Shown: positions 19,784 through 41,108, counted from the stretch's first letter. The stretch is DNA of 64,000 nucleotides from Candidatus Multivorans sp. (GCA_965247095.1 OZ251997.1:768001-832000); one strand, 5' to 3'. The notes: a model not told the origin generated them from the sequence alone. Program-made: numbers and translations.

Positions 19784-21151
19784 TCAGGAGGGTCGGCCGA
19801 ACACCTTGGGCGTCGGCATCCGGGCGCGGATTGCGTCGAGTTCCTCGACCGTCACGGTCGAAATGCCGCTCTTCAGGCAGTGGGATTCCACCGAGCGGAC
19901 GACCATGCCGCGAACGAAGGCCGGCACCCGCTTCATCCGCGCTTCCGCCTCGGGCGCCCAGGCGATGCTGGTGGAGGTGTTCTCGCCGTAGCGGGAAAGG
20001 GACGCGAGCCCGGTTCGGTCCCCGAACGCCGCGAGTTGTTCTGGCGAGAAGGAACCGGGGTCGTGGGTGCACAGCGGATCTTCCGCCATCAGGTCGCCGG
20101 TCATGCCGTAGGCGCGGGCGCGGCAGCCACCGCAGACCGACTGCAGCTCGCAGGAACCGCAGCGTCCGCCGAGGTCCTTGCGGCGCCGGATGTCCTGGAA
20201 CAGGTCGGAGTCGTTCCAGACCGCGGACAGCGTCGAGCGCTTCAGGTTGCCGCCGAAGACGGGCAGGTAGGGGCACGGCGTGACATCGCCGTTCGGGCGG
20301 ATCCCCATGTAGTGGGTGCCGGCCGGGCAGCCGCCGGCGCCGCCGTCGAAGGCCTTGAGGAAGGGCGAGTCGGGATCGCCGGACAGCAGTTGACGAACGT
20401 AGTGCGGCGCGCACTTCGCGTTGACCACCATGCGGCCGCGGTAGTTGCGCTGAATCTGTTCCAGGGAGGCGAGGACCTCGTCGTAGTCGGACGGCGAGAG
20501 ATCGGACACGAACTGGCCGCGACCCGTGGGCACCAGGAAGTAGAGGTTCCAGACCCGGGCCTGGAGTTCGGTATAGGCGAACTCGGCGATCTCCTCCAGT
20601 TCCCCGAGGTTGTGTGCCCCGGCGGTGGTCTGGATGATGAAGGGAAGACCGGCTGCGGCCAGGTGCCGGGCGCCGTCGACCGTGTTCTGCCAGGCGCCGC
20701 GGACGCGGCGGAAGCCGTCGTGGACCGCCGGGTCCAGCGCGTCCAGCGACAGGGCGAGACCGCGGACTCCTTCGCCGGCCAGGATGCGGGCCAGGTTCTC
20801 GGTGATCCGGACGCCGTTGCTGCCGACCACGACCCACAGATCGCGCTCGGCGGCGTAGCGGACGATGTCGAGGATGTCGCGCCGCAGCAGCGGCTCGCCG
20901 CCTGTGAGGATGACCAGGGCCTCGGGCGCGAACTCGCAGATGTCGTCGATCACCTTCCGGCACTGGTCGGTGGAGAGTTCCGAGCGGTCGGCGAAGTTGG
21001 CGGTCTCGACCAGCGGCTTGCCGCCGGCGTCGAGGTAGCAGTGCTCGCAGGCCAGGTTGCAGCGGTAGGTCAGATTCCAGGAGATCACGTAGGGGCGGGC
21101 GAACGCCGTCGGCGTGGCGCTGGTCGGCCGTTCGAGGGGTGACAGGGTCAT
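19784..21151 (-). CDS. Radical SAM/SPASM protein (AhbD/NirJ-like) with C-terminal PCP_red-like domain
   Basis: CNLACEHC, LTGGEPLLR, SPASM CPAG..CPY..CGSC..CGGCRARA, tail WAPEAEARMKRVPAFVR. Confidence 0.9.
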   Translation of the reverse strand: MTLSPLERPTSATPTAFARPYVISWNLTYRCNLACEHCYLDAGGKPLVETANFADRSELSTDQCRKVIDDICEFAPEALVILTGGEPLLRRDILDIVRYAAERDLWVVVGSNGVRITENLARILAGEGVRGLALSLDALDPAVHDGFRRVRGAWQNTVDGARHLAAAGLPFIIQTTAGAHNLGELEEIAEFAYTELQARVWNLYFLVPTGRGQFVSDLSPSDYDEVLASLEQIQRNYRGRMVVNAKCAPHYVRQLLSGDPDSPFLKAFDGGAGGCPAGTHYMGIRPNGDVTPCPYLPVFGGNLKRSTLSAVWNDSDLFQDIRRRKDLGGRCGSCELQSVCGGCRARAYGMTGDLMAEDPLCTHDPGSFSPEQLAAFGDRTGLASLSRYGENTSTSIAWAPEAEARMKRVPAFVRGMVVRSVESHCLKSGISTVTVEELDAIRARMPTPKVFGRPS

Positions 21152-23392: not shown

Positions 23393-23428
23393 GGGGGCAG
23401 CCTAACAGGGGGAGGCGACGCTAGCTGG

Positions 23429-25733: not shown

Positions 25734-25767
25734 GCTGCTAAGCCAGCAGGTCGTCCAGCCTGAGAAC

Positions 25768-27933
25768 TCAGGCTTCCGGTTCGCCGGCCTTGCGCTTCTC
25801 GTCGAGTGCCGACATCAGGCCGACCTCGTTCAGGTACGTGCCGGCCTTCGCGTCCTTGGCCGCCTCGACCTGTGCCTTGCTCGCGCCGGCTTCGGCGAGA
25901 GCGGAGAAGGGACACCGTCCGGCGGCTGTCGCGGCCTTCGTCTCGGCATCGGCGACCTCGGTCGCCTGGGTCCCTTCGCCCTTGCCGATCTCGTAGGCCG
26001 CGATCATCTGCTCCATCAGTTCGTGGCCCAGTTCGATGCCCTCTTCGACGGTCTTGATCCCGATCCGCGAGATGTGCTTCTCGCGGGCCACCAGCTCGAC
26101 GCGCTCCTGGGTCCGGTCCCGCATGAAGCCGGCGGGCACCCGGAGAATGCGGGAGGTGGCGTCGGCCGTCCACTCGTAGCTCGAGAGCAGCGGCACCCGA
26201 TCGCCGTCGCGGGCGATCAGCTTCCGCTCGTCGGATGCCGCTTCGGTGGCGCCGTTGTCGTTCGTTGCGGCCGCCTGCTCACGGGCCTCGATCGTCACCG
26301 GCTCGCCGGTCTCGTCCTCGATCTGCGCGCGGGCGAACTCGAAGGTGACGGTCGGCAGCTTGCTCATCCGCGCCTTCTTCTCGATCCGGGCCTTGGCGCG
26401 ACGGCGCCGGTACAGGTCCTCGATCGTCTTGAGGGCCAGACGGGCGTCCGCGGTCCACTTCAGCTTGCGGCCGTCGTAGGTCATCTCGACTTCCAGACCG
26501 CCTTCCATCTCGGCGATCCGTTCGAGCATCTCCTCGGTGATCTGCTCGAAGGACTTAGCTCCGCAGACGCCGCAGCGGACCGGATCCGGCTCGGCCGAGG
26601 TCACGCCGCACTTGCGGCAGATGAAGGTGGGCCGGCTGCGCGCGAGCTGCAGGCCGACCTGCTCGGCCAGCGCCTCCGTCTCGCGAGCGGTGTACTTGGG
26701 CATGTAGCGGTCCATCGCCTCGTCCAGCACGTCGCTCGAGATCACGCTGTGGCCCTGCTCGACCGCCAGCCGGTAGAGCGCGGTGCGGGCGATGCCGCGC
26801 ACCTGCTCGGGGACGCGCTTGAAACGCTCCTCGGCCTCGGGCGTCCAGCGGATGCTCTCCTCGGCCTTCACGTCGAGTTCCGGGTACTCGAGACGCGTGG
26901 TCAGCAGGAGGTCGCAGGGGCAGGAGCGGAGAAGGTTCTCGGCGTTGCTGCCGAGGCCGGTCTCGTTCTCGTCGCTGTGGACGCCGATGCGGCCGATGAC
27001 CAACATCCAGGGATCGATCTTGCGGGCGTGGTCGAGGACCTTCTGGAACGCTTTGCCGTCGAGCAGGGTCTTCGTCAACTCGACCCCGACCTCGGTCGCC
27101 ATCGTCTCGGCGACGTCCAGGTGGGACTGGTAGATCTGCGCCAGGCCGGTATCGATGATCTCTTCGTGGAGCTGGTTCTGCTCCTCGAAGCGGAAGACCT
27201 TCGCGGCCCGCTCGGTCAGCACGTTGACCACGCCCTTGAACACCGAGTAGTGCAGGTACGGGTCGTAGACCGAGATCGCCTCGACCTTCTTGCCGAACCG
27301 CTCGGCCAGGTCGATGGCGGTCATCAGAGCGCCGAAGGACTGGGGCGAGCCGTCGACGCCGACCAGGATCGTGTCGCGGCCGTCGGCCTCGGCTTCTGCG
27401 TGGTTGCCGTTGCCGTTGCCGTTGCTCCCCGAAACTCGGGCCGGCAGGCGCTTGATCACCAGCACGTCCTTGTCGGCGCTGCGGGCCACCCGCTCGCAGA
27501 CCGAGCCGATCTGCGTGTCGCGGACGCGGCCGATGCCCATCACGCCGAGCACCGTCAGGTCGTAGCCGGACTCGCGGATGTCGCGCACGATCTCGACGTG
27601 GTGCTTGCCGTCCATCATCTTCGGCTCGAACTCGAGGTCGGCTTCGTCGCAGACGGCCTTCATCGGCTCGAGGTAGCTCTCCGAGATGAGCTCCAGCCCC
27701 ATCGTGATCAGGGAGTCGTGGATCTTCCGCTGGCGGTCGAGTTCCGTCTCCTCGAGGTACTCCTCGGGCAGCGTGTACTCCATCTGCTTGAAGCGGTAGT
27801 CGTGCATGCTCGCCGCGTAGACGTGGCAGCCGACCATCCTGGAGTCGAACTTCCGGCCCAGTTCGACCGCGGAGGCGATTGCCTGGTTGGAGTAGTCCGA
27901 GTTGTCGAGCGGGACGTAGATCGTCTTGTACAT
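25768..27933 (-). CDS. Tandem universal stress protein fused to three PCP_red-like repeats and a Zn-ribbon
   Basis: IYVPLDNS and ILVGVDGS USP starts, IGSVCERV and LGSNAENL; WTPEA, WTADA, WTADA repeats; CRKC..CGVC. Confidence 0.9.
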   Translation of the reverse strand: MYKTIYVPLDNSDYSNQAIASAVELGRKFDSRMVGCHVYAASMHDYRFKQMEYTLPEEYLEETELDRQRKIHDSLITMGLELISESYLEPMKAVCDEADLEFEPKMMDGKHHVEIVRDIRESGYDLTVLGVMGIGRVRDTQIGSVCERVARSADKDVLVIKRLPARVSGSNGNGNGNHAEAEADGRDTILVGVDGSPQSFGALMTAIDLAERFGKKVEAISVYDPYLHYSVFKGVVNVLTERAAKVFRFEEQNQLHEEIIDTGLAQIYQSHLDVAETMATEVGVELTKTLLDGKAFQKVLDHARKIDPWMLVIGRIGVHSDENETGLGSNAENLLRSCPCDLLLTTRLEYPELDVKAEESIRWTPEAEERFKRVPEQVRGIARTALYRLAVEQGHSVISSDVLDEAMDRYMPKYTARETEALAEQVGLQLARSRPTFICRKCGVTSAEPDPVRCGVCGAKSFEQITEEMLERIAEMEGGLEVEMTYDGRKLKWTADARLALKTIEDLYRRRRAKARIEKKARMSKLPTVTFEFARAQIEDETGEPVTIEAREQAAATNDNGATEAASDERKLIARDGDRVPLLSSYEWTADATSRILRVPAGFMRDRTQERVELVAREKHISRIGIKTVEEGIELGHELMEQMIAAYEIGKGEGTQATEVADAETKAATAAGRCPFSALAEAGASKAQVEAAKDAKAGTYLNEVGLMSALDEKRKAGEPEA

Positions 27934-28004
27934 GGGGTTTCTCTTCTTTTGACGGAGTGTCGGTTCCGAGAGAGGAGGCTATCGATGCCTGAATGGGGCT
28001 GCGG

Positions 28005-29816
28005 TCAGACGGCGGGGGCCTCGGTACCCGCGAGGGCGGTCTCCTCGCCGGCCGATGCCTGGTTCGCGCGGCGGCGGACCAGGAACACGACGAGCAATTC
28101 GATCACGAGCACGATGAAGGCGGCGCGCAGCACCGGGATGGTCGCTGCCTGCTTCACGGTGGGTTCGGTGTAGACGTAGAACCAGGACGACACGGCGCGC
28201 TTGTTGCCGCGTTCCCGGTTGAAACCGTCCCAGACGCTGAAGGCGATCGGCGTGTACTGCTGCTCGGCGAAGCTGACGCCGGCGCGTGACGCGCGGCGGC
28301 GCCTATAAGTCACGGTCCACTCGCCCTGGTCGTAGGAGGTCACGGCCTCGACGATATCCGCCTCGGTCGGCTCGACCGCGTCGCTGCCGCGGCCCCGGAA
28401 GGTGTCCGCAACGCCATAGGTCAGGTTGACGAACCAGAGGTCGACCGGGTTCGAGCTGTCGCCGAACAGGAAGTACGGCTTGAGCTGGGGCGTCTTCTCG
28501 GGCGCGAGCGAGGCCGGGAACTGGAGCGCCACCGCATCCGAGAACTCGGCGCCGTCGCCGCCGGTATCGCCGCCACCGCCGAAGAAGTCGTCGTCCGTGC
28601 CGAAGAAGTCGTCGGCGCTGTCGTCGACGGTCTCGACGCCGAAGAACCCGGCATCGTCCTCGGGCGCCACCTCTTCGATGCCGAAGAAGCCTGCGTCGTC
28701 CTCGGGCTCCTCCTCGACGCCGAAGAAGCCGCCGTCTTCGCCTCCGTCACTGTCTCCCGAGTCGATGTCGTTGTCCTCGTCCCACATCGGTACGTCCAGC
28801 GAGGGGTTGTTCCTGCCGGTGTTGTCGGCGCGCAGGTCGTTCCAGCGCACCCGGAAGGCGATCTCGCCGCGGTTGTAGACGGCCTGAGCCTCGATCGAGG
28901 TCACGGACGGATAGAAGTTGCGACCCGGTTCGGTGATCTGGCCGACCAGGGGGAAGCGGGTCATCGGCGCGGTCTCGAACAGGGCGTCGAGCGCTTCCGC
29001 GTCCTGCAGGTCGATCGCCTCCTCGGTCCATGCGGCGGTGATCAGGGTGCCGTAGCCGGGGTCGTCGCCGTCGCCCAGGGAGTACACGTAGTTCACCAGG
29101 TGCTGCCGGTCCTCTTCTTCCAGCGAGTCGGCGTACGACGGCATCGGGGTGCCGTTCAGCCCGGTGGAGAAGGTGCGGTAGATGTCCTCCTTGGTCGCGC
29201 CGCCGCGGAAGGTCCAGCGCTGGGTCAGATCGGCGGCCTTGATCAGGTCGTTCTTGTCGTTGACCAGGGTCGGCGCCGAGTTTCCGTCGCCGCGGCCGAC
29301 CTCGCCGTGACAGGCGGCGCAGCCCTGCTCCTCGTACAGCAGCCGGCCGCGGGCGATGGACTCCTCGGTCGACTCGAGCGGCCGGGGGATGTCGATGGGC
29401 TCGCCGTAGCGGTCGGGATTCTCGAAGTCGGGCGAGAAGGACTTGATGTAGTAGATGACGTTCTGGACCTCCGCGTTCGTCAGGTCCGGCCAGCCCGGCA
29501 TCGACGTGTAGGGGAGGCCGGTCTCGATCACGCGGCGCAGGTCGTCGTCCGTGGGAAGCATCCCGTTCGGCGTGGCGCGGAACTTGTACTTGCCGGACGT
29601 GAAGTCGCGCGGCTTGGGCTTGACGCGCAGGGTGGCGTAACCGTTGCCGTCGCCGGCATCGCCGTGGCACTGGCCGCAGTACGTGTCGTAGACCACCTTG
29701 CCGGCCGCCCGCTGTTCCTCGGCGCCGAGGTCGACCTGGGCGGCCAGGGGCGCGACCAGCAGGACGGCGCCGACCCCTACGGCCGGTACGGACGCGAGAA
29801 TGTGACGCACGGACAT
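28005..29816 (-). CDS. Diheme c cytochrome fused to an EbdC/DOMON-like heme-b domain, C-terminal TM anchor
   Basis: CGQCH and CAACH, KPRDFT and TPMPS motifs, FSDAVALQFP..PYFLFGD..AFSVWDG. Confidence 0.85.
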   Translation of the reverse strand: MSVRHILASVPAVGVGAVLLVAPLAAQVDLGAEEQRAAGKVVYDTYCGQCHGDAGDGNGYATLRVKPKPRDFTSGKYKFRATPNGMLPTDDDLRRVIETGLPYTSMPGWPDLTNAEVQNVIYYIKSFSPDFENPDRYGEPIDIPRPLESTEESIARGRLLYEEQGCAACHGEVGRGDGNSAPTLVNDKNDLIKAADLTQRWTFRGGATKEDIYRTFSTGLNGTPMPSYADSLEEEDRQHLVNYVYSLGDGDDPGYGTLITAAWTEEAIDLQDAEALDALFETAPMTRFPLVGQITEPGRNFYPSVTSIEAQAVYNRGEIAFRVRWNDLRADNTGRNNPSLDVPMWDEDNDIDSGDSDGGEDGGFFGVEEEPEDDAGFFGIEEVAPEDDAGFFGVETVDDSADDFFGTDDDFFGGGGDTGGDGAEFSDAVALQFPASLAPEKTPQLKPYFLFGDSSNPVDLWFVNLTYGVADTFRGRGSDAVEPTEADIVEAVTSYDQGEWTVTYRRRRASRAGVSFAEQQYTPIAFSVWDGFNRERGNKRAVSSWFYVYTEPTVKQAATIPVLRAAFIVLVIELLVVFLVRRRANQASAGEETALAGTEAPAV

Positions 29817-30634
29817 CAGTGCTGCCCCAGAGCGCGCGGCTCGTAGCCGTTGAAGTCGTAGATGAACAGGTTGACGTCCCACATCTCCTCGGTGGTGAGA
29901 AACTTCTCCCACGCCGGCATGGCGCTGTCCCAGGGGGTGCCCGCCGCAGGCAGACCGGGTCCGCCCATGGCGATCCGCCAGTGGACGAAGGAGGACTGCA
30001 GGATCGGCAGCGTGCCGACATCGTTGAAGTTGCTGGGCGCCGGGTTCAGGCCGTGGGCGAACATGCCGTCGCCGCCCATGCCGTCGCCGTGGCACCAGAA
30101 GCAGTTCTCGTAGTAGACGCGACGGCCGTTCTCCAGGTGCTCCTCGTACGCCTCCGGGTCGTCTTCGTGAAGGTGGGTGTACGGGTTGTCGGCGGTCGCC
30201 ATGTCGATCGTCTCGTCGTGGACCGTGATCTCCGTTGGCGGCGCCGGATGCACCTCGCGCCCGAATCCGGGCGCCTCGAGCGGTACGTTCATGTCCGCGT
30301 AGACGTTGTAGGCGGCCAGGGCGGGCAGCGCCACGAGTACCGCGGCCAGAAGCGGCCGGCGCCGTGGTTCAAGGATGAGCCGCTTGATCGGTACTGTGGT
30401 CTCGGACAGGCGCTCGCGGCTCGACGAGGCGTAGCAGACCAGAGCGAGCGTCGCGATCCCCAGGTAGATCGTCGCCACCGACTGCGGGATCGGTACGGCG
30501 AAGCCGAACTTGAAGAAGGCCCAGAGCGCGATCCAACTGAAGAGCAGCCAGGCGAGTGTGTTGGCCCGGCGCCAGGCCAGCACGCCGGCGACCGCGGCCA
30601 GGGCAAGAAGAACCGGTAGGTTGAGTCCCATCAT
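29816..30634 (-). CDS. Membrane-anchored monoheme cytochrome c
   Basis: Several N-terminal TMs, CFWCH, WDSAMPAW. Confidence 0.88.
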   Translation of the reverse strand: MMGLNLPVLLALAAVAGVLAWRRANTLAWLLFSWIALWAFFKFGFAVPIPQSVATIYLGIATLALVCYASSSRERLSETTVPIKRLILEPRRRPLLAAVLVALPALAAYNVYADMNVPLEAPGFGREVHPAPPTEITVHDETIDMATADNPYTHLHEDDPEAYEEHLENGRRVYYENCFWCHGDGMGGDGMFAHGLNPAPSNFNDVGTLPILQSSFVHWRIAMGGPGLPAAGTPWDSAMPAWEKFLTTEEMWDVNLFIYDFNGYEPRALGQH

Positions 30635-30665
30635 GATTGAGTCGGTTCCGTGAAGGTTCGGGGGC

Positions 30666-31151
30666 TCAGTAGCCGAGTTCGGCGTCCAGGGTCACGGACG
30701 GCGTTCCGCCCAGGCTCTGCAGCCAAGCGATCACGGCCTTGATTTCGTCATCGGAGAGATTGATCGGCGGCTCATTCATCGGCTGCATCCCGTCCTCGTA
30801 TCCGGGAACGACGAACTTCCCCGGTTCGTAGAGAGACTGCGCCAGATACTCGACATCGGACAGCCCCTCGATTCGCGTCGCCGCGCGCTGTCCGATACCA
30901 CCCAGATCCGGATAGCGGCTTGGTCCGCTGGAACCGATCTGGTGGCAGGCGGCGAGGCATTGACCCTTGCCGTTGGCCAGCTCGTTGCCGACCTCGATGA
31001 GATCCTCGGTCGTCATGTCGGCGTCGATCAGCACCGGCGGCGGAGGGTGTACTTCCTTCTGGGGCACGATCTGGCCCAGGTACATGTAGAAGGCCGTGGT
31101 GCCCAACACCAGGAGGACCATCTTGAGCGGCATCGGGACGTTCAGCTTCAT
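30666..31151 (-). CDS. Small cytochrome c with atypical CX3CH motif
   Basis: N-terminal TM, GQCLAACHQ, EYLAQSLYEP..MQPM. Confidence 0.82.
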   Translation of the reverse strand: MKLNVPMPLKMVLLVLGTTAFYMYLGQIVPQKEVHPPPPVLIDADMTTEDLIEVGNELANGKGQCLAACHQIGSSGPSRYPDLGGIGQRAATRIEGLSDVEYLAQSLYEPGKFVVPGYEDGMQPMNEPPINLSDDEIKAVIAWLQSLGGTPSVTLDAELGY

Positions 31152-33085
31152 GCCGTCCGCCCCTCCTTGAGCCGGCCGTCGGCTTCAGTGGCGGTCTTCG
31201 GCTGCCAGGGCTTCTTGCCGGCGAGGCTGCTGAGCCAGAAGACGACGCCGAGCAGGCCGAAGAAGATGAGAACGGTGACGGAGACAACCCGGGTGGCGAA
31301 GCCCAGGCTCGGAGTGTATGCCTCCGGAGAGGTGTCGAGGACCACGCCGTACACGTGCCACTCCTGTCGCAGGCCGGAGCGGACGTAGCCCATCAGGCCC
31401 ATCAGCCAGGTGAAGCTCAGCGCGATGAAGATCAGCGCGTACTGCGAGATCGCGGGCATCTTGCCCCATTGCGTCTCGCCGGGCCGCCTGGCGTTCCGGT
31501 ACAGAGGCAGGTCGATGATGGTGATCACGGCCATCGCCGCGAGCACCGAGTAGACCTGGGGTATTGCGAATCGGACTCGCATCGCGGCGTCGACGGTCTG
31601 GTGGTAGCCGTAGACGCCGAAGAAGATGACCAGCGCGGCGGTAGCGGCGAAGACCACCACCTGGGCGCGGCTCAGGAGCTGCCTCCGCGGGTGAATCGAC
31701 TGCTTGCCGGTTCGCCGGTAGAGCAGGAAGCTCATGTAGGTCGACAGGATGAGGATGTTGACCGCCGTGTTCTTGGCCGACATCTGACCCAGATAGGAGA
31801 GCTGCGGGTGGCTGCTGCCGCCCATCGCGGCGATCTCGGAAACGGACGAGATCGCATAGCGAGGCGTTGCCCAGACGGCGAAACAGAGGGCGATCGCGAT
31901 CAGCAGCCACTTGATGAACTTCTGAAAGTGGGCTGTGCCCTCGATCCGACCCATCCCCAGCCACAGGTAGTAGTTCGCGCCCAGGAACAGGTTGCCGATC
32001 AGAGCCGCCTGGAGGACGAAGAGCCAGGAGAAGGTGCCGCCCATCATCTGGATACCCAGGGTCTGGCTGTAGCGGTAGATCTCGAGTGCCAGGTAGTAGC
32101 CGGCGAAGGGCAGGGGCAGGAACGCGATGATGGCGACGAAGTTGCCGATGTAGCCCATCCAGTCGAAGTGGGCCCGCTCCTCGTCTGTCTTCGCCTGGAG
32201 GTAACGGAAGGCGGCGTACGCGGCGGCGATCGAGCCGCCGAACGCGACGTTGGCGATGATCCGGTGGATGTTGATCGGCATCCAGGTGTAGTTGAAGAAG
32301 GCGTCTCGGAGGCTTAGCAGGGCACCGCTTTCCGAGACGGCGGAGACGAAGTCCGGGATGCCGTCGCCGTCCACGTCCTCCCGCTTGCCGGGCGACATCA
32401 TGAAGGTCAGCCAGGCGTTGGCGATGAACATGATCGCGGTGCCGACCACGTTCAGCATGAAACCGAGGAACAGGTGCATCTTCGGCCCGAACTTGCCCCA
32501 GCCGTAGTAGTAGCTGTAGAGGAACAGCGCCTCCAGGAAGAACAGCAGGACGTACGGCAGGAACGTCGGCGAGAAGATGTGCATCAGGTAGTTCGTGAAC
32601 TTCGGGTAGAGGATGATCAGCCCGAAGGTCAGGAACGCGCCGAAGGTGGCGGTCATCGAGAACGAGACGCTGAGCAGCTTCGTGAACTCGTACGCCAGCT
32701 TGTCGTAGCGCTCCTCCTTGGTGACGTAGCCGACGAACTCGATGATGAAGGCGAACAGCGGCACCGCCAGCACGAAGGCGGCGAACAGCAGGTGGAGCTG
32801 CGCCAGCACCCAGACCGTGACCCGGCTGCCGACGAACGGAACCTCGCGGTACTCGGCCTCCACGTAGGGCGTGGCCTTCGCCTCCGCTTCGTCTGCGGCC
32901 TGCTCGTCGGCGATGCCCTGCTGACGCGGGGCCGGTTCCGCCTCGCCCAGCGCTTCCGCGGCGGCCACCTGGCGCTCCGGCTGGCGGTACTCGTTGTCCA
33001 CCAGAAAGCCGCCCAGGCGGACAGTGACGATCACCGCCACGAAGGCGAGAACGCCGATGCCGAAGAGGATCTTGTTTCTGCTCAC
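31148..33085 (-). CDS. Cytochrome bd-like oxidase subunit I (CydA-like, no typical Q-loop seen)
   Basis: QLHLLF and NIHRIIAN heme-ligand His positions, FFLEA, MGYVRSGLRQEWHVYG; many TMs. Confidence 0.85.
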   Translation of the reverse strand: MSRNKILFGIGVLAFVAVIVTVRLGGFLVDNEYRQPERQVAAAEALGEAEPAPRQQGIADEQAADEAEAKATPYVEAEYREVPFVGSRVTVWVLAQLHLLFAAFVLAVPLFAFIIEFVGYVTKEERYDKLAYEFTKLLSVSFSMTATFGAFLTFGLIILYPKFTNYLMHIFSPTFLPYVLLFFLEALFLYSYYYGWGKFGPKMHLFLGFMLNVVGTAIMFIANAWLTFMMSPGKREDVDGDGIPDFVSAVSESGALLSLRDAFFNYTWMPINIHRIIANVAFGGSIAAAYAAFRYLQAKTDEERAHFDWMGYIGNFVAIIAFLPLPFAGYYLALEIYRYSQTLGIQMMGGTFSWLFVLQAALIGNLFLGANYYLWLGMGRIEGTAHFQKFIKWLLIAIALCFAVWATPRYAISSVSEIAAMGGSSHPQLSYLGQMSAKNTAVNILILSTYMSFLLYRRTGKQSIHPRRQLLSRAQVVVFAATAALVIFFGVYGYHQTVDAAMRVRFAIPQVYSVLAAMAVITIIDLPLYRNARRPGETQWGKMPAISQYALIFIALSFTWLMGLMGYVRSGLRQEWHVYGVVLDTSPEAYTPSLGFATRVVSVTVLIFFGLLGVVFWLSSLAGKKPWQPKTATEADGRLKEGRTA

Positions 33086-33106
33086 TGGCTCTCCGCTGCC
33101 GGGGCG

Positions 33107-33721
33107 CTACTGGCGGGCGTCCCGCTCCGTCTGCAGCGTCCGGCGTTCTTGCTGCAACTCGCGGACGTAGGCGACGACCGCCCAACGATCCTCGGTCTTG
33201 AGCGGGTAGCGGTAGCCCGCCATCAGCCCGGAGCCGTTTGTGATGACGTCGTAGAGGCGGCCGTCGTTGTAGCCGGCGACCCGCTCATCGTGAAGCGACG
33301 CTGTGGGCGTGCCGGCCCGTTCGAACAGGATGCCCTGGCCCGTGCCGCGCTCGTCGTGGCACGGCTGGCAGTAGATCGTGTACCGGCTTCTGCCCCGCGC
33401 CAGGACCTCGTCGGTGACCGGGAGGGGCGAACCGTCCAGAAAATAGCCATCGTCGTCGCGGCCGAAGAGCAGGCGATGGTCGATGTCGAGCTGGCCGCGG
33501 GCCACGGTGCCGGCGACCGGCTGGCGCATCGCCATCCCGTCGTAGAAGAAGCCGCTCGCCTCCTGGGGGTCGTAGCGCTCCTGGTAGTCCATGTTCGGGT
33601 TCAGGTGGATGGGCGGGTAGGGCGACGGCATGCCCCGGCAGCCGAGCAGAAGCAGGGGCGCGGCCAGGACCGCGGACGCGAGCCACCGGTTGCGGCGCCG
33701 GGTTCGAACCGTCTGGCGCAT
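33107..33721 (-). CDS. actE: ACIII ActE-like monoheme lipoprotein cytochrome c
   Basis: LLLGC lipobox, NMDYQ, RQPVAGTVARG, CQPCH, DRWAVVAYVRELQ. Confidence 0.88.
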   Translation of the reverse strand: MRQTVRTRRRNRWLASAVLAAPLLLLGCRGMPSPYPPIHLNPNMDYQERYDPQEASGFFYDGMAMRQPVAGTVARGQLDIDHRLLFGRDDDGYFLDGSPLPVTDEVLARGRSRYTIYCQPCHDERGTGQGILFERAGTPTASLHDERVAGYNDGRLYDVITNGSGLMAGYRYPLKTEDRWAVVAYVRELQQERRTLQTERDARQ

Positions 33722-36700
33722 CAGTGTGCGTCCTCGGTAGCGCCGTGCCCATTGCTTTCGGCGCCGTGGTCATCGGCGGCGGGCGGGGCGGGCACGATGC
33801 TGCGGTTCGGATGGCGGATCTTCGCCAGGTAGGTTGTCCGCGGCTTCGTGTGCAGATCGTCGAGCAGGTTGTAGTTGCGAGGGCTCGTCTTCGCCTCTAC
33901 GACCTGGCTTGTCGCATCCGTGATGTCGCCGAAGCGAATCGCCTCGGCGGGACAGGCCTGCTGGCAGGCGGTGACGACATCGCCGTCGGCCAGAGGCCGG
34001 CCGTCCTGCTTGGCGTCGATCTTGGCGCGGCTGATCCGCTGCACGCAGTAGGTGCACTTCTCCATGACCCCGCGAGAACGCACCGTGACGTCCGGGTTCT
34101 TGCCCAGGTGCATCACCTCGGGGGTGTCCTTGGTGAAGTTGAAGTAGTTGAAACGCCGGACCTTGTACGGGCAGTTGTTCGAGCAGTAGCGCGTGCCGAT
34201 GCAGCGGTTGTAGACCATCGCGTTGATGCCTTCGTCATCGTGGACGGTGGCGGAGACGGGGCAGACCTGTTCGCAGGGTGCGTTCTCGCACTGCATGCAG
34301 GGCACGGGCTGGAAGTTCGTCTGCGGGTCGTGGGGCAGATCGTCGACGAGGCCGTCCGATTCACCCTCGGAGGAGAAGTAGCGGTCGATGCGCAGCCAGT
34401 GCATCTCTCGGCCTTCCATCACCTGTTCCTTGCCGACGATCGGAATGTTGTTCTCGCTCTGACAGGCGATGACGCAGGCGTTGCAGCCCACACAGGCGTT
34501 CAGATCGATCGTCATGCCCCACTGGGGCGAGTCCTTGTAGGTCCACTCGTCCCACATCGAGTTCTCGTGAGGCTTCTCGCTGTGGGCGGTGGCGAAGTCG
34601 GGGTGCTCCTCGAAGTAGTCGAGGGCGGCTTCCCTGACGATCGGCCGACCTTCCATCGAGTGATGGTCCTGGGTCTGCGCCAGGGCGTATGAACCGCCGC
34701 TGGCCTTGAGCGCGCAACGGCCGACGTGGAGGGCGTCCGAGGTGCGCAGCAGATAGGCGTTCCTGCCCGGATTGTGATCCTCGTCGTTGGCGCTGCTGGC
34801 GATCCGGCCGTCGAAGTCCCGACCGTAGCCGAGATCGATCGTCACGGTGTGGTCGGCCTGGCCGGGCACCTGCCACACCGGCAGCTCAAGTTCGCGCTCG
34901 CCGCACGCGACGGTGACCAGGTCCTCGTTCTCCAGGCCGAGGGCCGTTGCGGTGGCCGGGCTGATCAGGGCCGCGTTGTCCCAGGTCAGCTTCGTGATCG
35001 GGTCGGGGAGCTCCTGGAGCCAGCCGTTGTTCGCGAAGCGCCCGTCGAAGACCGCCGCGGAGCAGCGGAAGACGACCTCGAGTTCCTCGCCCTCGACGAC
35101 CGGGTTGGCGGAGTCGCCGGCGGCACGGACCGCGGCGGCGCAGTCTTCGGGCGTGACGGTGGCCAGCTCGGCGGCGGGCGCGGCGCTGCCGTCCTGCACG
35201 CCGTCATGGAGCACCCGGCGCCAGGCGACCTCGAACTCGGAGAGTGCGACGGGAAACGGCAGTGACATGGGATCGACGGGCGGAGCGTCCGCCGCCTCGC
35301 TGTCGTCTGCCGCCGCATCCGTGTCTTCCTGCACCGGCGCCAGGGCCTCGGCGCCGTCGTCGAGCGGCAGCCCGAGCAGTTCGGACCAGGTCTCGCGGAC
35401 CAGGTCGCGGCCCTCCCGCGCCTCGCCGAGAGCGGCCAGCGCCAGCACCTCGACGATGCTCCTGGCGCCGTAGAGAGGCTCGATCAGGGGCTGCACCACG
35501 CTGGCTGTGCCGTCGGTGGCGCGGGCATCCCCCCAGCTCTCGAGGTAGTGGGCGAGAGGAATGTGCCAGCGCGCAAAGGGGCTCGTTTCGTCGCGGTGGG
35601 TACCGAGATGAATGACCGCGCCGGCGCTGTTCAGGTTCTCGACCGCGGCGGCGAAGTCGAGGTCGGCGGGAGCGCTGTAGACCGGGTTCGCTTCCAGGAT
35701 GAGAAGGCGGTCGACGGCGCCTTCGTTCATGGCCGCCACCAGGGCGGCCAGGTCGGCGTCGCTCGAACTGCCGCTGTCCGGCGTCTGGTGGTAGGTCACC
35801 GTGGCGCCGACGTTGCCGAGCGCCGAGTTCAGTGCGTAGACCGCCGCGTGGACTTCCGCCGGCTGGCGATCGCCCGCGACGATCAGGCCGGCGCCGCGAT
35901 GATCGACCAGATCCTGCGCGACCGCCCGCAGCCAGGCGTCGTCGATGTCCGCGGAGGGAGCACCGCCGTCGAGCGGCAGCTCCAGGCCGTGTGCGGCGAG
36001 AGCGTGTCCCAGCTTGGCCACGAAGGCGGCGACCCGGCCACTCTGTACGCGCAGCCGGTGGTCCGCGTTGGCGGACGTGACCGAGTGAACGCCGTCGACG
36101 GCGTAGTGCCGGAGCATCTCCGAGGCGCCGTTGTCACCCGTACGCCGGGCCTTGGCGTAGCCGCGCAGATTGCGGACGCTGTCGCCCTCCGTACTCAGGA
36201 GGTCGGAGTCCAGGGAGAGCAGAACCTGAGTTCGATCCAGGTTGTAGACAGCGTGGTAGCGATCGTCGGCCACCGATTCGAGACCGCGGTCGGCGTTCTC
36301 GTCGCTCACCGGTTGCCAGGTGACCCAGCGCGCCTGGGGATAGCGTTCGAGCAGAGCCGACTTGAGCCGGAGCAGGGTCGGCGACGAGGACGGCTCGGCG
36401 AGGACCGCCAGCCCGGCGCCGTCGGCGGCGGGAGCGAGGTCGCCCTCGGTCCAGGCGGCGACGAAGTCGTCCCAGGACGACGCCTGGTCGCCGAATCGCA
36501 CCGTCTTGGAGCGGTCCGGGTCGTACAGGTCGAGGATGGAGGACTGCGCCCAGACTCCAGACGCACCGCCGGAAGACGGATGGAGTTCGTTCCCCTCGAC
36601 CTTGGTCGGCCTGCCCTCGTGGCTCTCCATGACCAGCCCGAGGACCCGGTTGCCGAACGGCATCGTGGTGGCGTAGGCGAGCGGAATGCCGGGAACCATG

Positions 36701-36969
36701 CCTTCAGGCGCGTCGACGTAGGGAACGATGTGTTCAACCGGGCGGCGGATCACGTCGCAGCCGGTCAAGCCGGCCAGGGAGGCGGTGGAGCCCAGCATCG
36801 CCAGCACGGTTCGCCGGCTGACGCCGTCCTGGAGCAGTTCCGCCGGCGCCTCGGAAGCGCCCTCGGGGAACTCCCGGTGCAGGAAGTCGGTCGCCCGGGC
36901 ATCGCCCTGCACCTGTTCCAGGCTGCGCCAGTAGGTCTTTGCCGGCTGGTGGCCGTTGCCTGCGCTCAT
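33721..36969 (-). CDS. actB: ACIII ActB (molybdopterin-oxidoreductase-like plus Fe-S domains)
   Basis: YWRSL, SRRTVL Tat motif, [57 protein letters not shown]. Confidence 0.93.
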
Positions 36970-37613
36970 CGATGGCACCCCGTGCAGTCCTCTGGCGGCG
37001 CGAGGCCGCGTTCCGCGATCGCCTGTTCGGCGAAGGCGTCGTGATCGCCGGTGGGCGTCCAATCCATGTCGGTAACCGCGTCGAGCGGCCGCAGATTCGG
37101 ACCCGGGTTGCGATGGCAGTCGAGGCACCAGCTCATGCTCAGGGGCGCCACCTGGGTCACGACCTCCATCTCATGGACGGGACCGTGGCAGGACTTGCAG
37201 CCGACGCCGGCGCCGACATGGACGCTGTGATTGAAGAACGCGTAGTCGGGCAGGTTGTGGACGCGCACCCAGCGCATGGGCCGACCCTGCGCCGCGCTCT
37301 TGCGGATCGGCGCCAGGAGTTCGCTCTCGCGCGCCGCGACGTGGTGGCAATTCATGCAGACCTGGGTCGGAGGGATGTTCGACACGGCGGACTCCTCGAC
37401 CGAGGCGTGGCAGTACCGGCAGTCGAGGCCGAGCTCGCCGACATGGAGCTTGTGGCTGTAGGGTACCGGCTGCACTGGCCTGTAGCCGACATCGGTGTAT
37501 TCGGGCGAACCGTAGTACCAGACGGCGCCCACCGCCGCGGCGCCCGCGATCGGTAGAGCGGCCGCCACGTACAGCGGCGCCTTGAGAGTCCACTTAGGGA
37601 AGATCTGAGCCAA
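36966..37613 (-). CDS. actA: ACIII ActA pentaheme cytochrome c
   Basis: QIFP start, one TM, five CxxCH (CRYCH, CMNCH, CKSCH, CLDCH, CTGCH). Confidence 0.93.
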   Translation of the reverse strand: MAQIFPKWTLKAPLYVAAALPIAGAAAVGAVWYYGSPEYTDVGYRPVQPVPYSHKLHVGELGLDCRYCHASVEESAVSNIPPTQVCMNCHHVAARESELLAPIRKSAAQGRPMRWVRVHNLPDYAFFNHSVHVGAGVGCKSCHGPVHEMEVVTQVAPLSMSWCLDCHRNPGPNLRPLDAVTDMDWTPTGDHDAFAEQAIAERGLAPPEDCTGCHR

Positions 37614-37712
37614 AGTCCGTACCCGGAATACAGCGAATGCAGGGTAGGAAGCCCCCTGCCCGATCCTTGAACGCGCGGAGTGTACAGCGTGCTACCGAGG
37701 TGGTCAAAGGCC

Positions 37713-37818
37713 GCCGCAAAACCTGTCGCAGGCTCCATGTTTTGCCCCAGCCCCGCCTCGCTAGGATCTCGCGCCGCGGAACTCGCCTCGCTACGTTCTT
37801 CGGCGCGAGGTCCTAGCG
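37713..37818 (-). repeat. Two-hairpin structured element, copy C (between actA and sco)
   Basis: CGCTAGGA..TCCTAGCG hairpin, GAGGCGGGGCTGGG, GCAAAAC..GAGCCTGCGA..GTTTTGC. Confidence 0.8.
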
Positions 37819-37836
37819 CCGAGATAGTGTCGGGGC

Positions 37837-38493
37837 GTGTCCGAAGGCGGTATCCAAGGCGCCCCTGGCGCCGCCCAGAAGCCGCGCCGCGGCTTCCTGA
37901 ACCCCTGGTTTCTGGCTGCTCTCGCGGGCCTCGTCCTGATCCCTGCGCTGCGGCCGCTGCTGCGCATCGAGCCCGATCCGCCGCCGGTTCTGCGGCAGTT
38001 GCCCGAGTGGCGGCTGGTGGACCAGGACGGCGAGGACTTCGGCAGCGCCGATCTTGCGGGCGATGTCTACGTCGCTTCCTTCGTGTTCACCCGCTGCGCG
38101 ACGGTCTGTCCGCGGTTGACGGCGGAGGTCAGCCGGTTGCAGCGCCGCTACCGGGAGGAGGGCGTCGACGGCGTGCGGCTGGTCAGCTTCTCGGTCGATC
38201 CCGAACACGACACCCCGGAGCGACTGCGGGACTACGCCGGGCGCCGCAGCCTCGACCTGGAGCGCTGGCGCCTGGTGACCGGGGGCGAGCAGGAGGTGCG
38301 CTCGATCGTGGTCTCTGGATTTGCCCTGCCCATGGGTGAGCGGATCGATCTCGCCGGCGGCCTGGTCGACGTGGCGCATGCGGCGCGGCTGGTGCTCGTG
38401 GACCGCGACGGTGGCGTCCGCGGGTACTACGGCTCGGACGCGGTCGGCCTGGACGAGATCTTCCACCGCACGCGGCAGATCCTGGCGGAGTAG
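37837..38493 (+). CDS. SCO1/SenC copper chaperone
   Basis: FTRCATVCP (CxxxC), SVDPEHDTPE, conserved His in VAHAARLVLVD. Confidence 0.92.
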   Translation: MSEGGIQGAPGAAQKPRRGFLNPWFLAALAGLVLIPALRPLLRIEPDPPPVLRQLPEWRLVDQDGEDFGSADLAGDVYVASFVFTRCATVCPRLTAEVSRLQRRYREEGVDGVRLVSFSVDPEHDTPERLRDYAGRRSLDLERWRLVTGGEQEVRSIVVSGFALPMGERIDLAGGLVDVAHAARLVLVDRDGGVRGYYGSDAVGLDEIFHRTRQILAE

Positions 38494-38524
38494 GGGATCG
38501 CGCCACCCGGGTTTCCAGCGGCGG

Positions 38525-39628
38525 TCAGGCTCCGGTTCGGGGCTCCATTCCCTCGATCCACTCCCGGATCAGCGCTACCGCTTCGACATCGACGAGTCCG
38601 CGGCCGAGCTCGGGCATCATGATGCCGGGGTGGGTCGATTCGAGCCGGTAGACAAGGATCGATTCGTCCGGGCTGCCTGGCACGACGCCGTAGAGGCGGT
38701 CGCCGGTGCCCTGGCCGGCCGCGACCGGATGCTTGTAGATGCCGAGTCGGGTCCGGTCGTCATGCTCCGCGCGCAGATCGAGCCCCGACGTGCGTCCGCT
38801 GCCCTTGAGGTTGTGGCAGTGGGCGCAGTTGATGTCGAGCCAGGTGCGGGCGCGTTGGTCGACGGTGCCGGTCGAGGGCTCGTTCCAGACCGGCGCCCGG
38901 GCCGCCTCGGCCGGTGACGGGGCGCCCTCGAGGAAGCCGAGACGCTGCCAGCGGGCGAGCTGATTCTCGGCGCGGCCGGGACCGCCGCCGTCGGTGGCAT
39001 AGACGAACTCCCGGTTCAACTGGCCGGCACGCGGGCCGATCGGCAGCAGGTGCTCGCCGTCCGTGCGGTGACAGGTCTTGCACTGGTTCGTGTTGGGCAC
39101 CCGATAGGTGTGTTCGACTGTCTCGCCGCTGCTATCGACCCAGGAGACGTCGAGGGGACCGCCGACGATCGCCAGTTCCGCCTCGGTCTGTTCCTCGTTC
39201 CAGATGTAGGGCAGCCCGACCCAGCCGCCTTCTTCGTGAATGAGGAGCCGGGTCTCGATCAGCCGCACGCCGGCCGCGTTCTCGCGGAAGTCGGCGGGAT
39301 ATGCGAACGTCTTCACGATGACCGTGCCGACGGGGAACTCGAACGGTCCCGCTGCGCGGTAATGCGCCGGCTGAAGGGCGCCGTCCGGGGCGGTAGGGAG
39401 CCGGACGAAGCGGAACTTCAGCGCGTAGTCGGAGAAGAGAGGCGTGTTCAGGTCGTACGGTTCGACCCCAGGGGCAGGCGTCTGGGTCGAACCGTCGCCC
39501 GCGAAGAGCTCCCAGGCCGACAGCGTCTGCGGATAGCGGTCGAATGGGCCGCCCCCGGCCGGAGAATCACCGCTCGAACAGCCGGAGGCCGCCAGGAGGG
39601 CGACCGCCGGGACGAGCAGCGCCTTCAT
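38525..39628 (-). CDS. SO2930-like diheme c lipoprotein
   Basis: AASGC lipobox, PLFSDYALKFRF, IETRLL, CKTCH, NCAHCH, MMPELGR. Confidence 0.88.
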   Translation of the reverse strand: MKALLVPAVALLAASGCSSGDSPAGGGPFDRYPQTLSAWELFAGDGSTQTPAPGVEPYDLNTPLFSDYALKFRFVRLPTAPDGALQPAHYRAAGPFEFPVGTVIVKTFAYPADFRENAAGVRLIETRLLIHEEGGWVGLPYIWNEEQTEAELAIVGGPLDVSWVDSSGETVEHTYRVPNTNQCKTCHRTDGEHLLPIGPRAGQLNREFVYATDGGGPGRAENQLARWQRLGFLEGAPSPAEAARAPVWNEPSTGTVDQRARTWLDINCAHCHNLKGSGRTSGLDLRAEHDDRTRLGIYKHPVAAGQGTGDRLYGVVPGSPDESILVYRLESTHPGIMMPELGRGLVDVEAVALIREWIEGMEPRTGA

Positions 39629-40989
39629 CAGGGACTGCCGGCGCCCGTCGAGACGCCGAGCGCCGCCAAACGCCTCGCAGGCTCGGAGTTTGGCCCCAGC
39701 CCCCACCTCCCTGGCACTCGGCGCGTCTCCACTTCACTTGTGTGCGTTTCCGCCGCGCCGACTCCCAGGTTGACCGGCTGCGGAACCGCCGGCAGCGCCC
39801 CCTGGTGGGGGCCGAGATCGGTGGTCACGTTCGGCTGACCGCCGGCCAACACGGATCCGAGATCGAGGTTCACGAAGTCCGCGTCTCCGTTGTTCTCGAT
39901 GTACAGGCGGAGTTCGTCCGGCACCGCGCCGTCGACCAGCTTGTCCGGGTTCACAACACCGTCCCACACGATGTCCGGGAAGGCGCCTCCGGCGAGGGCG
40001 ACGAACGCGTCCGCGAAGGCGCCGTTCGGGCTCTCGCCGCCGCCGACGAACTCGTTGTTGTGGATGTAGACGCCTTCGGTGTACGGGTCGTAGCCGGGGT
40101 CGTTGTAGGTGCGCCCGGTGGAGAGGTACGAGATCACCGCCAGGTTCGAGTTCTGGTTGTTGTGGATCCGGTTTCCGAACAGTTCGACATTGTCGCTGGC
40201 CATGACGATGACCCCCGAGCCGGCCGGAATCGTGGAGACGATCGCTCCCTCCTTGCCGAAGTTGGGCAGGTTGTTGTCGGCGATCTCGTTGTCGTAGACG
40301 CGCGCGTCGCGGCCGTCCTTGACCGGAAGCTCGGGCAGGGAGAAGACGAGCAGGCCGCCGGTGTTGCCGTGGGCCCGGTTTTCGTAGACGTCCGCGCCGG
40401 TGGTGTTCTCGATCTCGATGCCGGCCACGTTCTCCCAGACCTCGTTGCGCCGGACGACGACGTTGGCGGACTGGCCGACGTAGATGCCGGCGTCCGAGGC
40501 GCCGCGTACACGGCTGTCCTCGATCAGGACGTTCGTCACCTGAACGGGGTAGAGACCGTAGGCGCCGTTGTTCGTGTCCGGTCCGTTCGTCCACTCGACC
40601 CGCACGCTGCGGAAGGCGGCGCCGGTGGTGCCCTCGACCTTGATGCCGTCGCCGCGCGTGTTCTCGACCGCGAGGTTCTCGACCGTGAAGTCGTCGGCCG
40701 TCACCAGGACCCCCTCGCCGCCGGTGCCCGGCGCCTGGCCGGCGAAGTCCAGGATGGTCTCGTCCATTCCCTGGCCGCGCAGCGTCACGCCCTCGACGTC
40801 GAGGGACAGGGTGGCGTCGAGCACGAAACGGCCGGCGCCGAGCTCGATGACCGCACCTGGCTCCGCGACGAGCAGCGCCTCCTGCAACGTCTTGTGGTCG
40901 TTGGCGCCAGGGCGGAGAGGTCCGTCCTGTTCGGCGCAGGCGACCAGAGCGAGCGCGGCGGCGGCCACGCAGAGATACTGTTTCTTCAT
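39628..40989 (-). CDS. Parallel beta-helix repeat lipoprotein
   Basis: LVAC lipobox, GAYGLYPV, GASDAGIYVGQS, NVAGIEIEN; coupled to the diheme gene. Confidence 0.9.
   Translation of the reverse strand: MKKQYLCVAAAALALVACAEQDGPLRPGANDHKTLQEALLVAEPGAVIELGAGRFVLDATLSLDVEGVTLRGQGMDETILDFAGQAPGTGGEGVLVTADDFTVENLAVENTRGDGIKVEGTTGAAFRSVRVEWTNGPDTNNGAYGLYPVQVTNVLIEDSRVRGASDAGIYVGQSANVVVRRNEVWENVAGIEIENTTGADVYENRAHGNTGGLLVFSLPELPVKDGRDARVYDNEIADNNLPNFGKEGAIVSTIPAGSGVIVMASDNVELFGNRIHNNQNSNLAVISYLSTGRTYNDPGYDPYTEGVYIHNNEFVGGGESPNGAFADAFVALAGGAFPDIVWDGVVNPDKLVDGAVPDELRLYIENNGDADFVNLDLGSVLAGGQPNVTTDLGPHQGALPAVPQPVNLGVGAAETHTSEVETRRVPGRWGLGPNSEPARRLAALGVSTGAGSP
39662..39769 (-). repeat. Two-hairpin structured element, copy B (in frame in the beta-helix gene 3' end)
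   Basis: CCTGG..TCGGCGCG/CGCGCCGA..CCAGG hairpin, GAGGTGGGGGCTGGG, GCCAAAC..GAGCCTGCGA..GTTTGGC. Confidence 0.8.
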
Positions 40990-41108
40990 GGGTTGGGAGG
41001 GTCTCCGGTTGGTCGTTGGCGGTCGTCGAAGAGGTCGAAGCAACCGCGTCAGAGCGGCGCGGGCGCCGGTTGTCCGGCGCTGCGCGCTGGCTCGATCATG
41101 CCATCATA

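Follow-up and report, generated by a model that had tools for sequence, protein, structure and literature searches.

Gene organisation of the locus

The DNA analysed here, a window of 64,000 nucleotides from Candidatus Multivorans sp. (GCA_965247095.1 OZ251997.1:768001-832000), contains a row of seven genes, all on the minus strand and running from position 37613 down to 28005, in which three genes for the peripheral arm of alternative complex III (ACIII) are followed by a gene for a CydA-like membrane haem protein and three genes for c-type cytochromes, in the order actA, actB, actE, CydA-like, c1, c2 and c3. The host genome is a single contig of 4.62 Mb that is 98.96% complete, and its nearest relatives are metagenome-assembled genomes (MAGs) labelled Candidatus Multivorans or Thermoanaerobaculia (Acidobacteriota). 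A first-pass annotation, made from the window alone, had described the same seven genes with their coordinates and the translational coupling of actA, actB and actE, and our gene calls and junction measurements confirm this description.

The first gene, actA (36966..37613), encodes a pentaheme cytochrome c of 215 residues belonging to the ACIII peripheral arm, with five CXXCH motifs and one N-terminal transmembrane (TM) helix. It is followed by actB (33721..36969), whose product of 1082 residues, counted from the ATG at 36969, carries a leader of the twin-arginine translocation (TAT) type and is a fusion of a molybdopterin-like part (B1) with a four-cluster Fe-S part (B2), and by actE (33107..33721), which encodes a monoheme cytochrome c of 204 residues with one CXXCH, a probable lipoprotein and the electron exit of ACIII. 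The CydA-like protein (31148..33085, 645 residues) matches PF01654 at 91 bits and is of the OR-N1/N2-like or 'bd-like' kind. The three cytochromes behind it comprise c1 (30666..31151, 161 residues), a monoheme cytochrome c anchored in the membrane by one helix, matching PF00034 and having CLAACH (CX3CH) as its haem motif; c2 (29816..30634, 272 residues), with four TM helices and a C-terminal monoheme cytochrome c domain with one CXXCH; and c3 (28005..29816, 603 residues), a diheme protein (two CXXCH) with an EB_dh domain, an acidic repeat insert and a C-terminal TM helix.

The genes are closely packed. The actA and actB genes overlap by 4 nt and actB and actE by 1 nt, the CydA-like gene begins 21 nt after actE and overlaps c1 by 4 nt, and c2 lies 31 nt behind c1 and overlaps c3 by 1 nt. 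Because the actA/actB and actB/actE junctions are so tight, there is no space for actC or actD. Genome-wide family searches gave no NrfD, CydB or COX1 match within the window; the earlier statement that cydB, actC and a heme-copper oxidase are missing is thus borne out for the window, not for the genome. The sole sigma-70-like promoter match in the region 23000-38600 (37679..37707, minus strand) lies upstream of actA. It is a consensus match only, and the scan for promoters and terminators in this region was at chance level, with one promoter match found and 0.8 expected from shuffled sequences.

Two halves of ACIII in one genome

When compared with the solved ACIII structures, ActA was found to match 6f0k_A best, over its full length (E 3.3e-67), ActB to match 6f0k_B (E 1.7e-269, 900 bits) and ActE to match 6f0k_E (E 2.1e-51). 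We take 6F0K to be the ACIII of Rhodothermus marinus, and 6BTM, referred to below, that of Flavobacterium johnsoniae. The haem motifs are also highly constant, with five CXXCH in 50/50 ActA homologues and one CXXCH in 54/54 ActE homologues. ActB further matches the TAT variant TIGR04519 (42 bits, cut-off 20.6) and shows QrcC-like and QrcB-like parts together with Fer4 domains, and the ActE N-terminus, as read from its translation, is positively charged and then runs into the lipobox-like LLLLGC.

The membrane part of the complex is encoded elsewhere. About 650 kb from actB, at 1.45 Mb of the contig (C1), there is a row consisting of actC, actD, actF, a gene for a 241-residue protein, COX1, COX3, COX4, a gene for a 170-residue protein, and COX2. 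Its ActC is of the NrfD type and matches 6f0k_C at E 6e-201, its ActF matches 6f0k_F at E 1.5e-93, and its ActD matches PF11821 at 211 bits. No ActA, ActB or ActE stands alongside this row, and a search of the genome with ActB gave no match there. The COX1 in the row, of the aa3 type, is the only one in the genome. All six ACIII subunits are therefore encoded in this genome, with chains of 6F0K as the best matches for A, B, C, E and F and with ActD recognised by Pfam, and to a single orphan 'wire' (A, B, E) there corresponds a single orphan membrane arm (C, D, F). The arrangement expected of a one-operon ACIII, with ActC, ActD and ActF alongside ActA and ActB, is not found at the locus, whereas the list of subunits is complete in the genome.

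NrfD matches occur at three places in the genome, all of them outside the window, and the other ActB-like genes are confined to a Qrc-like set at 2.34 Mb (G000:C1:2338000-2345000; L011 8778-14544), which is self-contained, with its own NrfD and ActD-like proteins. This ACIII/Qrc-like set comprises a multiheme cytochrome c, a MopB protein retaining the Fe4S4 domain, an Fe-S protein that is 58% identical to the B2 part of ActB, an NrfD and a short ActD-like protein. The third NrfD forms a fusion with an Fe-S protein and adjoins a Phs/Psr-like molybdoenzyme.

Judged from these matches, the canonical ACIII is complete in this organism, but split into actABE and actCDF-cox. The first-pass annotation had seen in the row an ACIII lacking ActC, ActD and ActF, a claim that fails at the level of the genome. 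It had looked to an actCDF operon and a cognate cydB elsewhere in the genome, together with an ordinary quinol-oxidising CydA, as arguments against a hybrid respiratory complex; the actCDF genes are indeed found, whereas a cognate cydB is absent and the CydA-like protein is not of the ordinary quinol-oxidising kind (see below).

In such a hybrid, ActA, ActB and ActE would dock on the CydA-like protein, which would replace ActC and ActF as the membrane anchor and yield a new enzyme without quinol oxidation by an NrfD protein. The 21-nt distance between actE and the CydA-like gene and the translational coupling of the row are in its favour. The presence of one orphan ActCDF and one orphan ActABE in the same genome, making up the full set of 6F0K-like subunits, speaks against it, as does the fact that an ActCDF-cox cluster without an ActB would have no acceptor for the quinol electrons, as is known from the established ACIII structures. 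Because ACIII is complete though split, a replacement of ActC by the CydA-like protein, as had been proposed earlier, is not needed.

The 241-residue protein between actF and COX1 (L010 8662-9387, minus strand, equal to G000:C1:1448662-1449387) contains a weak CarboxypepD_reg-like domain and matched no family above cut-off. In other phyla it turns up again, next to either COX1 or the bd-like module (L024, L025, L051, L079, L081, L083 and L086).

The split in other genomes

Complementarity of the two halves was checked in a sample of 11 genomes, namely this one, five with ActABE next to a CydA-like gene (G101-G105, from loci L042, L016, L068, L049 and L032) and five in which the module has no ActABE in front of it (G106-G110, from L080, L076, L069, L060 and L086). 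A complementary split was found in 6/6 of the genomes with ActABE next to the CydA-like gene, this one included. In each of G101-G105 (5/5), ActB lies beside the CydA-like gene without an adjacent ActC, and the best ActC orthologue, which is 72-92% identical to the ActC of this genome, has no ActB nearby; the distance between the two halves varies from 18 kb to 1.14 Mb. Four of these five genomes additionally carry complete, contiguous ACIII paralogues with an ActC of 44-62% identity. For G106-G110, a single ActB abuts a single ActC in 5/5 cases. The pairing of orphan halves seen in this genome is hence the same in the five others tested, which is again difficult to reconcile with a hybrid anchored by the CydA-like protein.

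The two halves can also be neighbours without being merged. In two loci labelled delta proteobacterium (L081 and L083), cox, the gene for the 241-residue protein, actF, actD, actC and SCO1 lie on one strand, and actA, actB, actE, the CydA-like gene, c1, c2 and c3 lie on the opposite strand, so that the halves stand back to back.

Sixteen ActC rows, of which 5 were orphans, 9 contiguous copies and 2 Qrc-like outgroups, went into a tree (the G101 copy was excluded because of frame errors). The orphan ActCs fall into one clade with an ultrafast bootstrap (UFBoot) value of 81. This clade has the contiguous ActCs of Rhodothermales/Bacteroidetes MAGs as its sister group (98) and stands apart from the contiguous acidobacterial ActC paralogues (91). 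The split of ACIII is conserved and is not an accident of one genome.

In several long-read MAGs (L027, L032, L035, L040, L042, L071 and G101), ActB, ActC, c3 or Usp/PCP_red is fragmented across reading frames. These fragmented open reading frames (ORFs) look like frame errors of the assemblies rather than pseudogenes, and such records were kept out of the alignments and out of the ActC tree.

Conservation and autonomy of the CydA-like module

A scan with the 12-row CydA-like alignment as query, using one genome per species, retrieved at least 595 confirmed relatives in at least 604 matched stretches. The locus counts given here and below are drawn from the best 80 loci, a set that favours close relatives, and include only those loci with enough flanking DNA. 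Downstream of the CydA-like gene, c1 was present in 75/75, c2 in 72/72 and c3 in 67/67 loci; upstream of it, ActE was present in 54/70, ActB in 49/62 and ActA in 47/58. The four-gene module is 60-70% identical across phyla. An even sample of the phylum gave a CydA-like gene in 3 of 100 other Acidobacteriota genomes, one of the three carriers being the unpublished G049; a sample of this size does not allow statistics on co-occurrence.

The 13 loci without ActB carry the labels Rhodothermales, Bacteroidetes, Fibrobacteria, Spirochaetaceae and Bdellovibrionales, and some are Acidobacteriota. The upstream scan of such loci covered 30 of 60 ORFs, from 8 loci, short ORFs and the ORFs of L051 and L088 being excluded, and what it returned were housekeeping genes without relation to the module, another, divergent module copy (L079), or SCO1 and NnrS (L062). 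In three Rhodothermales loci (L086, L072 and L074), the module comes directly after the cox genes. The L079 locus, from a MAG labelled Spirochaetaceae, has two divergent CydA-like/c1/c2/c3 modules back to back, each with a gene resembling that of the 241-residue protein ahead of it.

Going by these gene neighbourhoods, the CydA-like module works without ActABE in several lineages, which argues against the CydA-like protein existing to anchor ActB. The hybrid complex does gain some credit from the 49 of 62 loci in which ActB lies upstream, but it is contradicted by the 13 in which ActB is missing, with a contiguous ACIII elsewhere in five such genomes, and by the split yet complementary ACIII described above. 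On these grounds it is not supported, and we consider it highly improbable.

A second possibility is that a normal ACIII, made of ActABE and ActCDF, is stably joined to the CydA-like protein and c1-c3 in a supercomplex like that of ACIII and aa3 in 6BTM, and that the grouping of the act genes, 'wire + bd-like oxidase' on the one hand and 'membrane arm + aa3' on the other, mirrors assembly lines. The conserved split, with each half tied to one oxidase in 6/6 genomes, the divergent halves in L081 and L083, and the modules directly after cox in Rhodothermales all fit with this proposal. In Nitrospirales, moreover, actABCDE is directly followed by an OR-N5 oxidase, according to PMC12342949. The co-transcription of the wire with the bd-like genes resembles both this arrangement and the ACIII-caa3 superoperons reported for Acidobacteria in PMC8407424, and it may reflect a supercomplex. 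The module is, however, also found among unrelated genes, so that a fixed supercomplex cannot be obligatory, and we regard it as quite unlikely. A split canonical ACIII that is co-transcribed with an autonomous oxidase module agrees better with these observations.

The CydA-like protein

The PF01654 model was matched only at its positions 2-240 of 418. A profile built from 12 relatives aligned with the solved CydA chains over the first ~190-230 residues, and up to about residue 300, corresponding to the N-terminal five-helix part. Within this part, H98 corresponds to the first-helix His (His19 in E. coli numbering) and H274 to the fifth-helix His, which we take to be His186 in E. coli; both are invariant in the 12 rows. 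No residue was assigned as the equivalent of Met393. E185, equivalent to the second channel Glu (Glu107), is likewise invariant in this alignment, and the position of the first proton-channel Glu is taken by Y178, a tyrosine throughout.

The remainder of the protein is different. The Q-loop part and the C-terminal helices of the CydA model are unmatched, and there is no CXXCH within the protein. Alignment-averaged hydropathy, a crude method, indicates about 14 hydrophobic segments, consisting of an extra N-terminal helix, an acidic linker and then 13 more. No internal duplication was detected with hhalign, nor any likeness between the protein and the membrane part of c2 (probabilities <5% in both cases). 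The genome has a single CydA-like gene, and no CydB (PF02322) was matched in its 98.96% complete sequence by a search that found the family in 9 of the 14 named genomes used as controls. In the ESM Atlas, the nearest clusters belong to PF01654, with Pseudomonadota, Nitrospirota and Nitrospinota as the commonest phyla, which we treat as a lead only.

Taken together, these sequence features set the protein apart from the ordinary quinol-oxidising CydA. They fit the OR-N1/N2 bd-like family of Nitrospirota, with the qualification that the label 'OR-N2-like' used here rests on architecture, not on phylogeny. The reading that fits best is a terminal reductase, fed by cytochrome c, that the CydA-like protein forms with its cytochromes.

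Partner cytochromes and a predicted contact

The CX3CH site that the first-pass annotation had singled out in c1 is indeed present; it is, however, a quirk of the lineage, as only 7/63 homologues have CX3CH and 56/63 have CXXCH at the same site. One CXXCH is found in 75/75 c2 homologues and two in 34/34 c3 homologues. PF00034 matches c3 twice, and PF09459 (EB_dh) matches it at 52.7 bits (cut-off 33.3); TIGR03477 reaches 76 bits, under its cut-off of 170. Its EB_dh domain is of the type II dimethyl sulfoxide (DMSO)-reductase gamma-like kind and could bind haem b.

An acidic low-complexity insert occupies residues ~349-421 of c3, inside the EB_dh part, and holds a short D-x-[F/W]-G-[D/E]-like motif, repeated 2-5 times and seen in the forms FFG, FWG, PWG, VWG and PFG. 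The pattern is present in 34/34 homologues, and the rest of the insert is unconserved. The repeat may be a docking motif.

In addition to the sequence comparisons, complex prediction was applied to the CydA-like protein with c2. The pair scored 0.71 (runs of 0.72, 0.01 and 0.71) against 0.01 for the best of three controls, and in the benchmark of this score the mark was attained by 116 of 157 solved complexes and by 2 of 215 mismatched pairs. The partner's predicted local distance difference test (pLDDT) value was at least 74, and the runs agreed in at least 3% of contacts. The predicted interface brings residues 45-73 and 120-123 of c2 together with residues 357-429 of the CydA-like protein, a segment that includes the invariant Y372, Y373, C401, W405, T407, P408 and E417. 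The model thus supports a direct binding of c2 to the CydA-like protein. To our knowledge, no comparable complex has been solved.

The presence of Y178 in place of the first channel Glu also prompts one to ask if the module reduces O2 at all. It could instead reduce NO or reactive oxygen or nitrogen species, or link cytochrome c with the quinone pool. The EB_dh domain, otherwise known from subunits of periplasmic Mo-enzymes, the NnrS gene found with SCO1 ahead of the module in L062, and the fact that no OR-N enzyme has been assayed, according to PMC10839748 and PMC12342949, can all be taken in this sense. The invariance of the active-site ligand equivalent to His19 and of the Glu107 equivalent weighs on the other side, as do the clustering of the module with cox, ACIII and SCO1 in many loci and the reliance on OR-N genes of those Nitrospirota and Nitrospinota that are without other oxidases, reported in PMC12342949 and PMC10839748. 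We hold a function other than O2 reduction to be unlikely and retain the O2-reducing module as the preferred reading.

Neighbouring genes and expression

Immediately behind c3, after 71 nt, lies an accessory gene (25768..27933, minus strand) encoding two Usp and two PCP_red (BchB C-terminal-like) domains, and such a Usp/PCP_red gene was found downstream in 54/60 loci. Further downstream, a gene (19784..21151, minus strand) encodes a radical SAM/SPASM protein of the tetrapyrrole-modifying AhbD/NirJ kind whose C-terminus is a PCP_red domain. Its scores of 291 bits (TIGR04545) and 280 bits (TIGR04055) fall short of the cut-off, which is 500 for either model. A radical SAM gene occurred within 10.5 kb downstream in 27/56 loci. 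PCP_red is the tetrapyrrole-capping end of BchB. Because PCP_red caps the tetrapyrrole in BchB, the radical SAM, PCP_red and Mrp/ApbC-type genes may modify or insert haem for the module. The possible cofactor-maturation genes include a small PCP_red protein (21176-21652, minus strand) and an Mrp/ApbC-type Fe-S carrier (21675-22790, minus strand).

On the other side of the row, divergent from actA, there is a gene for an SCO1/SenC copper chaperone (37837..38493, plus strand; PF02630 at 90 bits), and an SCO1 match adjoins the cluster ahead of actA in many related loci. Next to it lie two genes on the minus strand (38525-39706 and 39628-41043) that encode a diheme cytochrome of the TIGR03806 'SO2930 family' and a NosD-like parallel beta-helix protein (TIGR03805), each scoring above its cut-off; this pair is limited to close relatives.

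Metatranscriptome contigs were found on actA, on actB, at the actB/actE junction (33463-33877), on the CydA-like gene (31981-32237 and 32463-32777) and on the Usp/PCP_red gene. They derive from two libraries of one study and from a relative with about 1.5-10% of letters differing; an origin from DNA is possible and no silent stretch served as control, so that they give a weak hint that the locus is expressed, and parts of the locus that no contig covers carry no weight either way.

Discussion

In our proposal, to which we assign a rough probability of 0.7, the locus joins one half of a split canonical ACIII, by co-transcription, to an autonomous and probably cytochrome-c-fed O2 reductase consisting of the CydA-like protein and c1-c3. 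ActA, ActB and ActE would be the peripheral electron wire of the canonical ACIII, and ActC, with the quinol site, ActD and ActF would be its membrane part, encoded with the aa3 oxidase; once assembled, ActABE and ActCDF would give a quinol:cytochrome c oxidoreductase of the ordinary type. Together with c1, c2 and c3, the CydA-like protein would constitute an independent membrane complex of OR-N1/N2 'bd-like' type, without a quinol loop and without CydB. The His ligands that serve cytochrome bd for its low-spin and its active-site haem are kept, and four haem c sites, plus a possible haem b domain, would surround the CydA-like protein. In ACIII, the electron route through the Fe-S clusters of ActB to the haems of ActA and to ActE is established. 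Electrons would here pass from menaquinol through ActC, the ActB Fe-S clusters and the ActA haems to ActE, and from ActE or ActA they could be handed over to c1, c2 or c3, reach the CydA-like haems and end on O2. This bd-like route would be a second branch beside that from ACIII to aa3.

Several points weigh against this proposal. The complementarity of the halves rests on 11 genomes, with a support of just 81 for the orphan-ActC clade. The tyrosine at position 178 does not preserve the first proton-channel Glu of CydA, and one of the three predictions for the CydA-like protein with c2 scored 0.01. Nor has O2 reduction ever been shown for any OR-N enzyme, according to PMC10839748 and PMC12342949. 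Furthermore, the ActABE-CydA-like arrangement is kept across Acidobacteriota classes and in MAGs that carry the label delta proteobacterium or Gemmatimonadaceae, and such a conserved co-transcription argues for a functional tie beyond adjacency, possibly a physical one.

As to known systems, the genome shares with the solved ACIII complexes (6F0K, 6BTM, 6LOD and 8K9E) all six subunits and the link of the membrane arm to an aa3-type cox. Unlike in those systems, however, some 650 kb separate actABE from actCDF-cox here, the ABE genes share a transcription unit with a bd-like module, and actE sits with A and B, not between D and F. Cytochrome bd (CydAB; 6RKO, 7OSE and 5DOQ) is similar in its N-terminal helices, with the His, Glu and His residues aligning and PF01654 passed, but differs in that the protein studied here has no match to the Q-loop or C-terminal parts, no CydB, a Tyr for the first channel Glu, and cytochrome c partners.

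The closest likeness is to the OR-N proteins. Murali, Gennis & Hemp (bioRxiv 10.1101/2021.01.16.426971) describe a family that has no more than its first four helices in common with CydA and is devoid of the quinol site, whose OR-N1 and OR-N2 members have 14 helices, OR-N2 often occurring without a second cydA, and whose genes stand in operons with alternative electron donors. OR-N enzymes are regarded as putative cytochrome c-oxidising O2 reductases awaiting experimental confirmation (PMC10839748 and PMC12342949). TO_3 and TO_4 of Ca. Manganitrophus are reported to unite bd-like proteins and parts that resemble complex III or ACIII (PMC9040806). The CydA-like protein resembles OR-N1 and OR-N2 of Nitrospirota and Nitrospinota (including TO_1 of Ca. 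Manganitrophus, PMC9040806) in having about 14 segments of which the first helices alone are CydA-like, in lacking a quinol loop, a CydB and a haem c motif in the subunit, and in having c-type cytochromes and a periplasmic cytochrome-b-like (EB_dh) protein as neighbours. It differs in its host, a Thermoanaerobaculia acidobacterium with no nitrite or manganese lithotrophy genes in view, in being encoded by a single CydA-like gene instead of an N1+N2 pair, and in its co-transcription with ActABE. The statement in the first-pass annotation that similar clusters in Nitrospira-type nitrite oxidisers are biochemically uncharacterised agrees with bioRxiv 10.1101/2021.01.16.426971, PMC12342949 and PMC10839748.

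The actAB1B2CDE genes and the OR-N5 CydAA' of Nitrospirales (PMC12342949) likewise combine ACIII and an OR-N oxidase in one gene row. That row, however, includes ActC and ActD but not ActF, has a split ActB and carries a 10-helix CydAA' pair as its oxidase, whereas here C, D and F lie elsewhere and the oxidase subunit is a lone one of about 14 helices. A full-text literature search, with the supplements of Murali et al. outside its scope, found no paper on ActABE co-transcribed with an OR-N2-like module or on an ABE/CDF-cox split. Both parts of the system are of known kinds, and it is the gene organisation that is new; the locus does not encode a new hybrid enzyme.

A bolder version, to which we would give little weight, is that ActA, ActB and ActE act as a swappable wire that docks the bd-like module onto ActCDF, in a supercomplex parallel to that of ACIII and aa3, and that the module contains a modified haem produced by the AhbD/NirJ-like and PCP_red proteins.

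For annotation, the split into 'wire' and 'membrane arm + aa3' operons carries the risk that ACIII is called incomplete or that hybrid complexes are invented. As for the family itself, none of the OR-N 'bd-like' enzymes has been purified, although they are considered the main oxidases of Nitrospirota that oxidise nitrite or manganese. Many carriers of the module are heterotrophic Acidobacteriota, Rhodothermales and Bacteroidota, which widens the choice of organisms for a first biochemistry, and the genetic tie to a canonical ACIII names a likely electron donor of the bd-like module.

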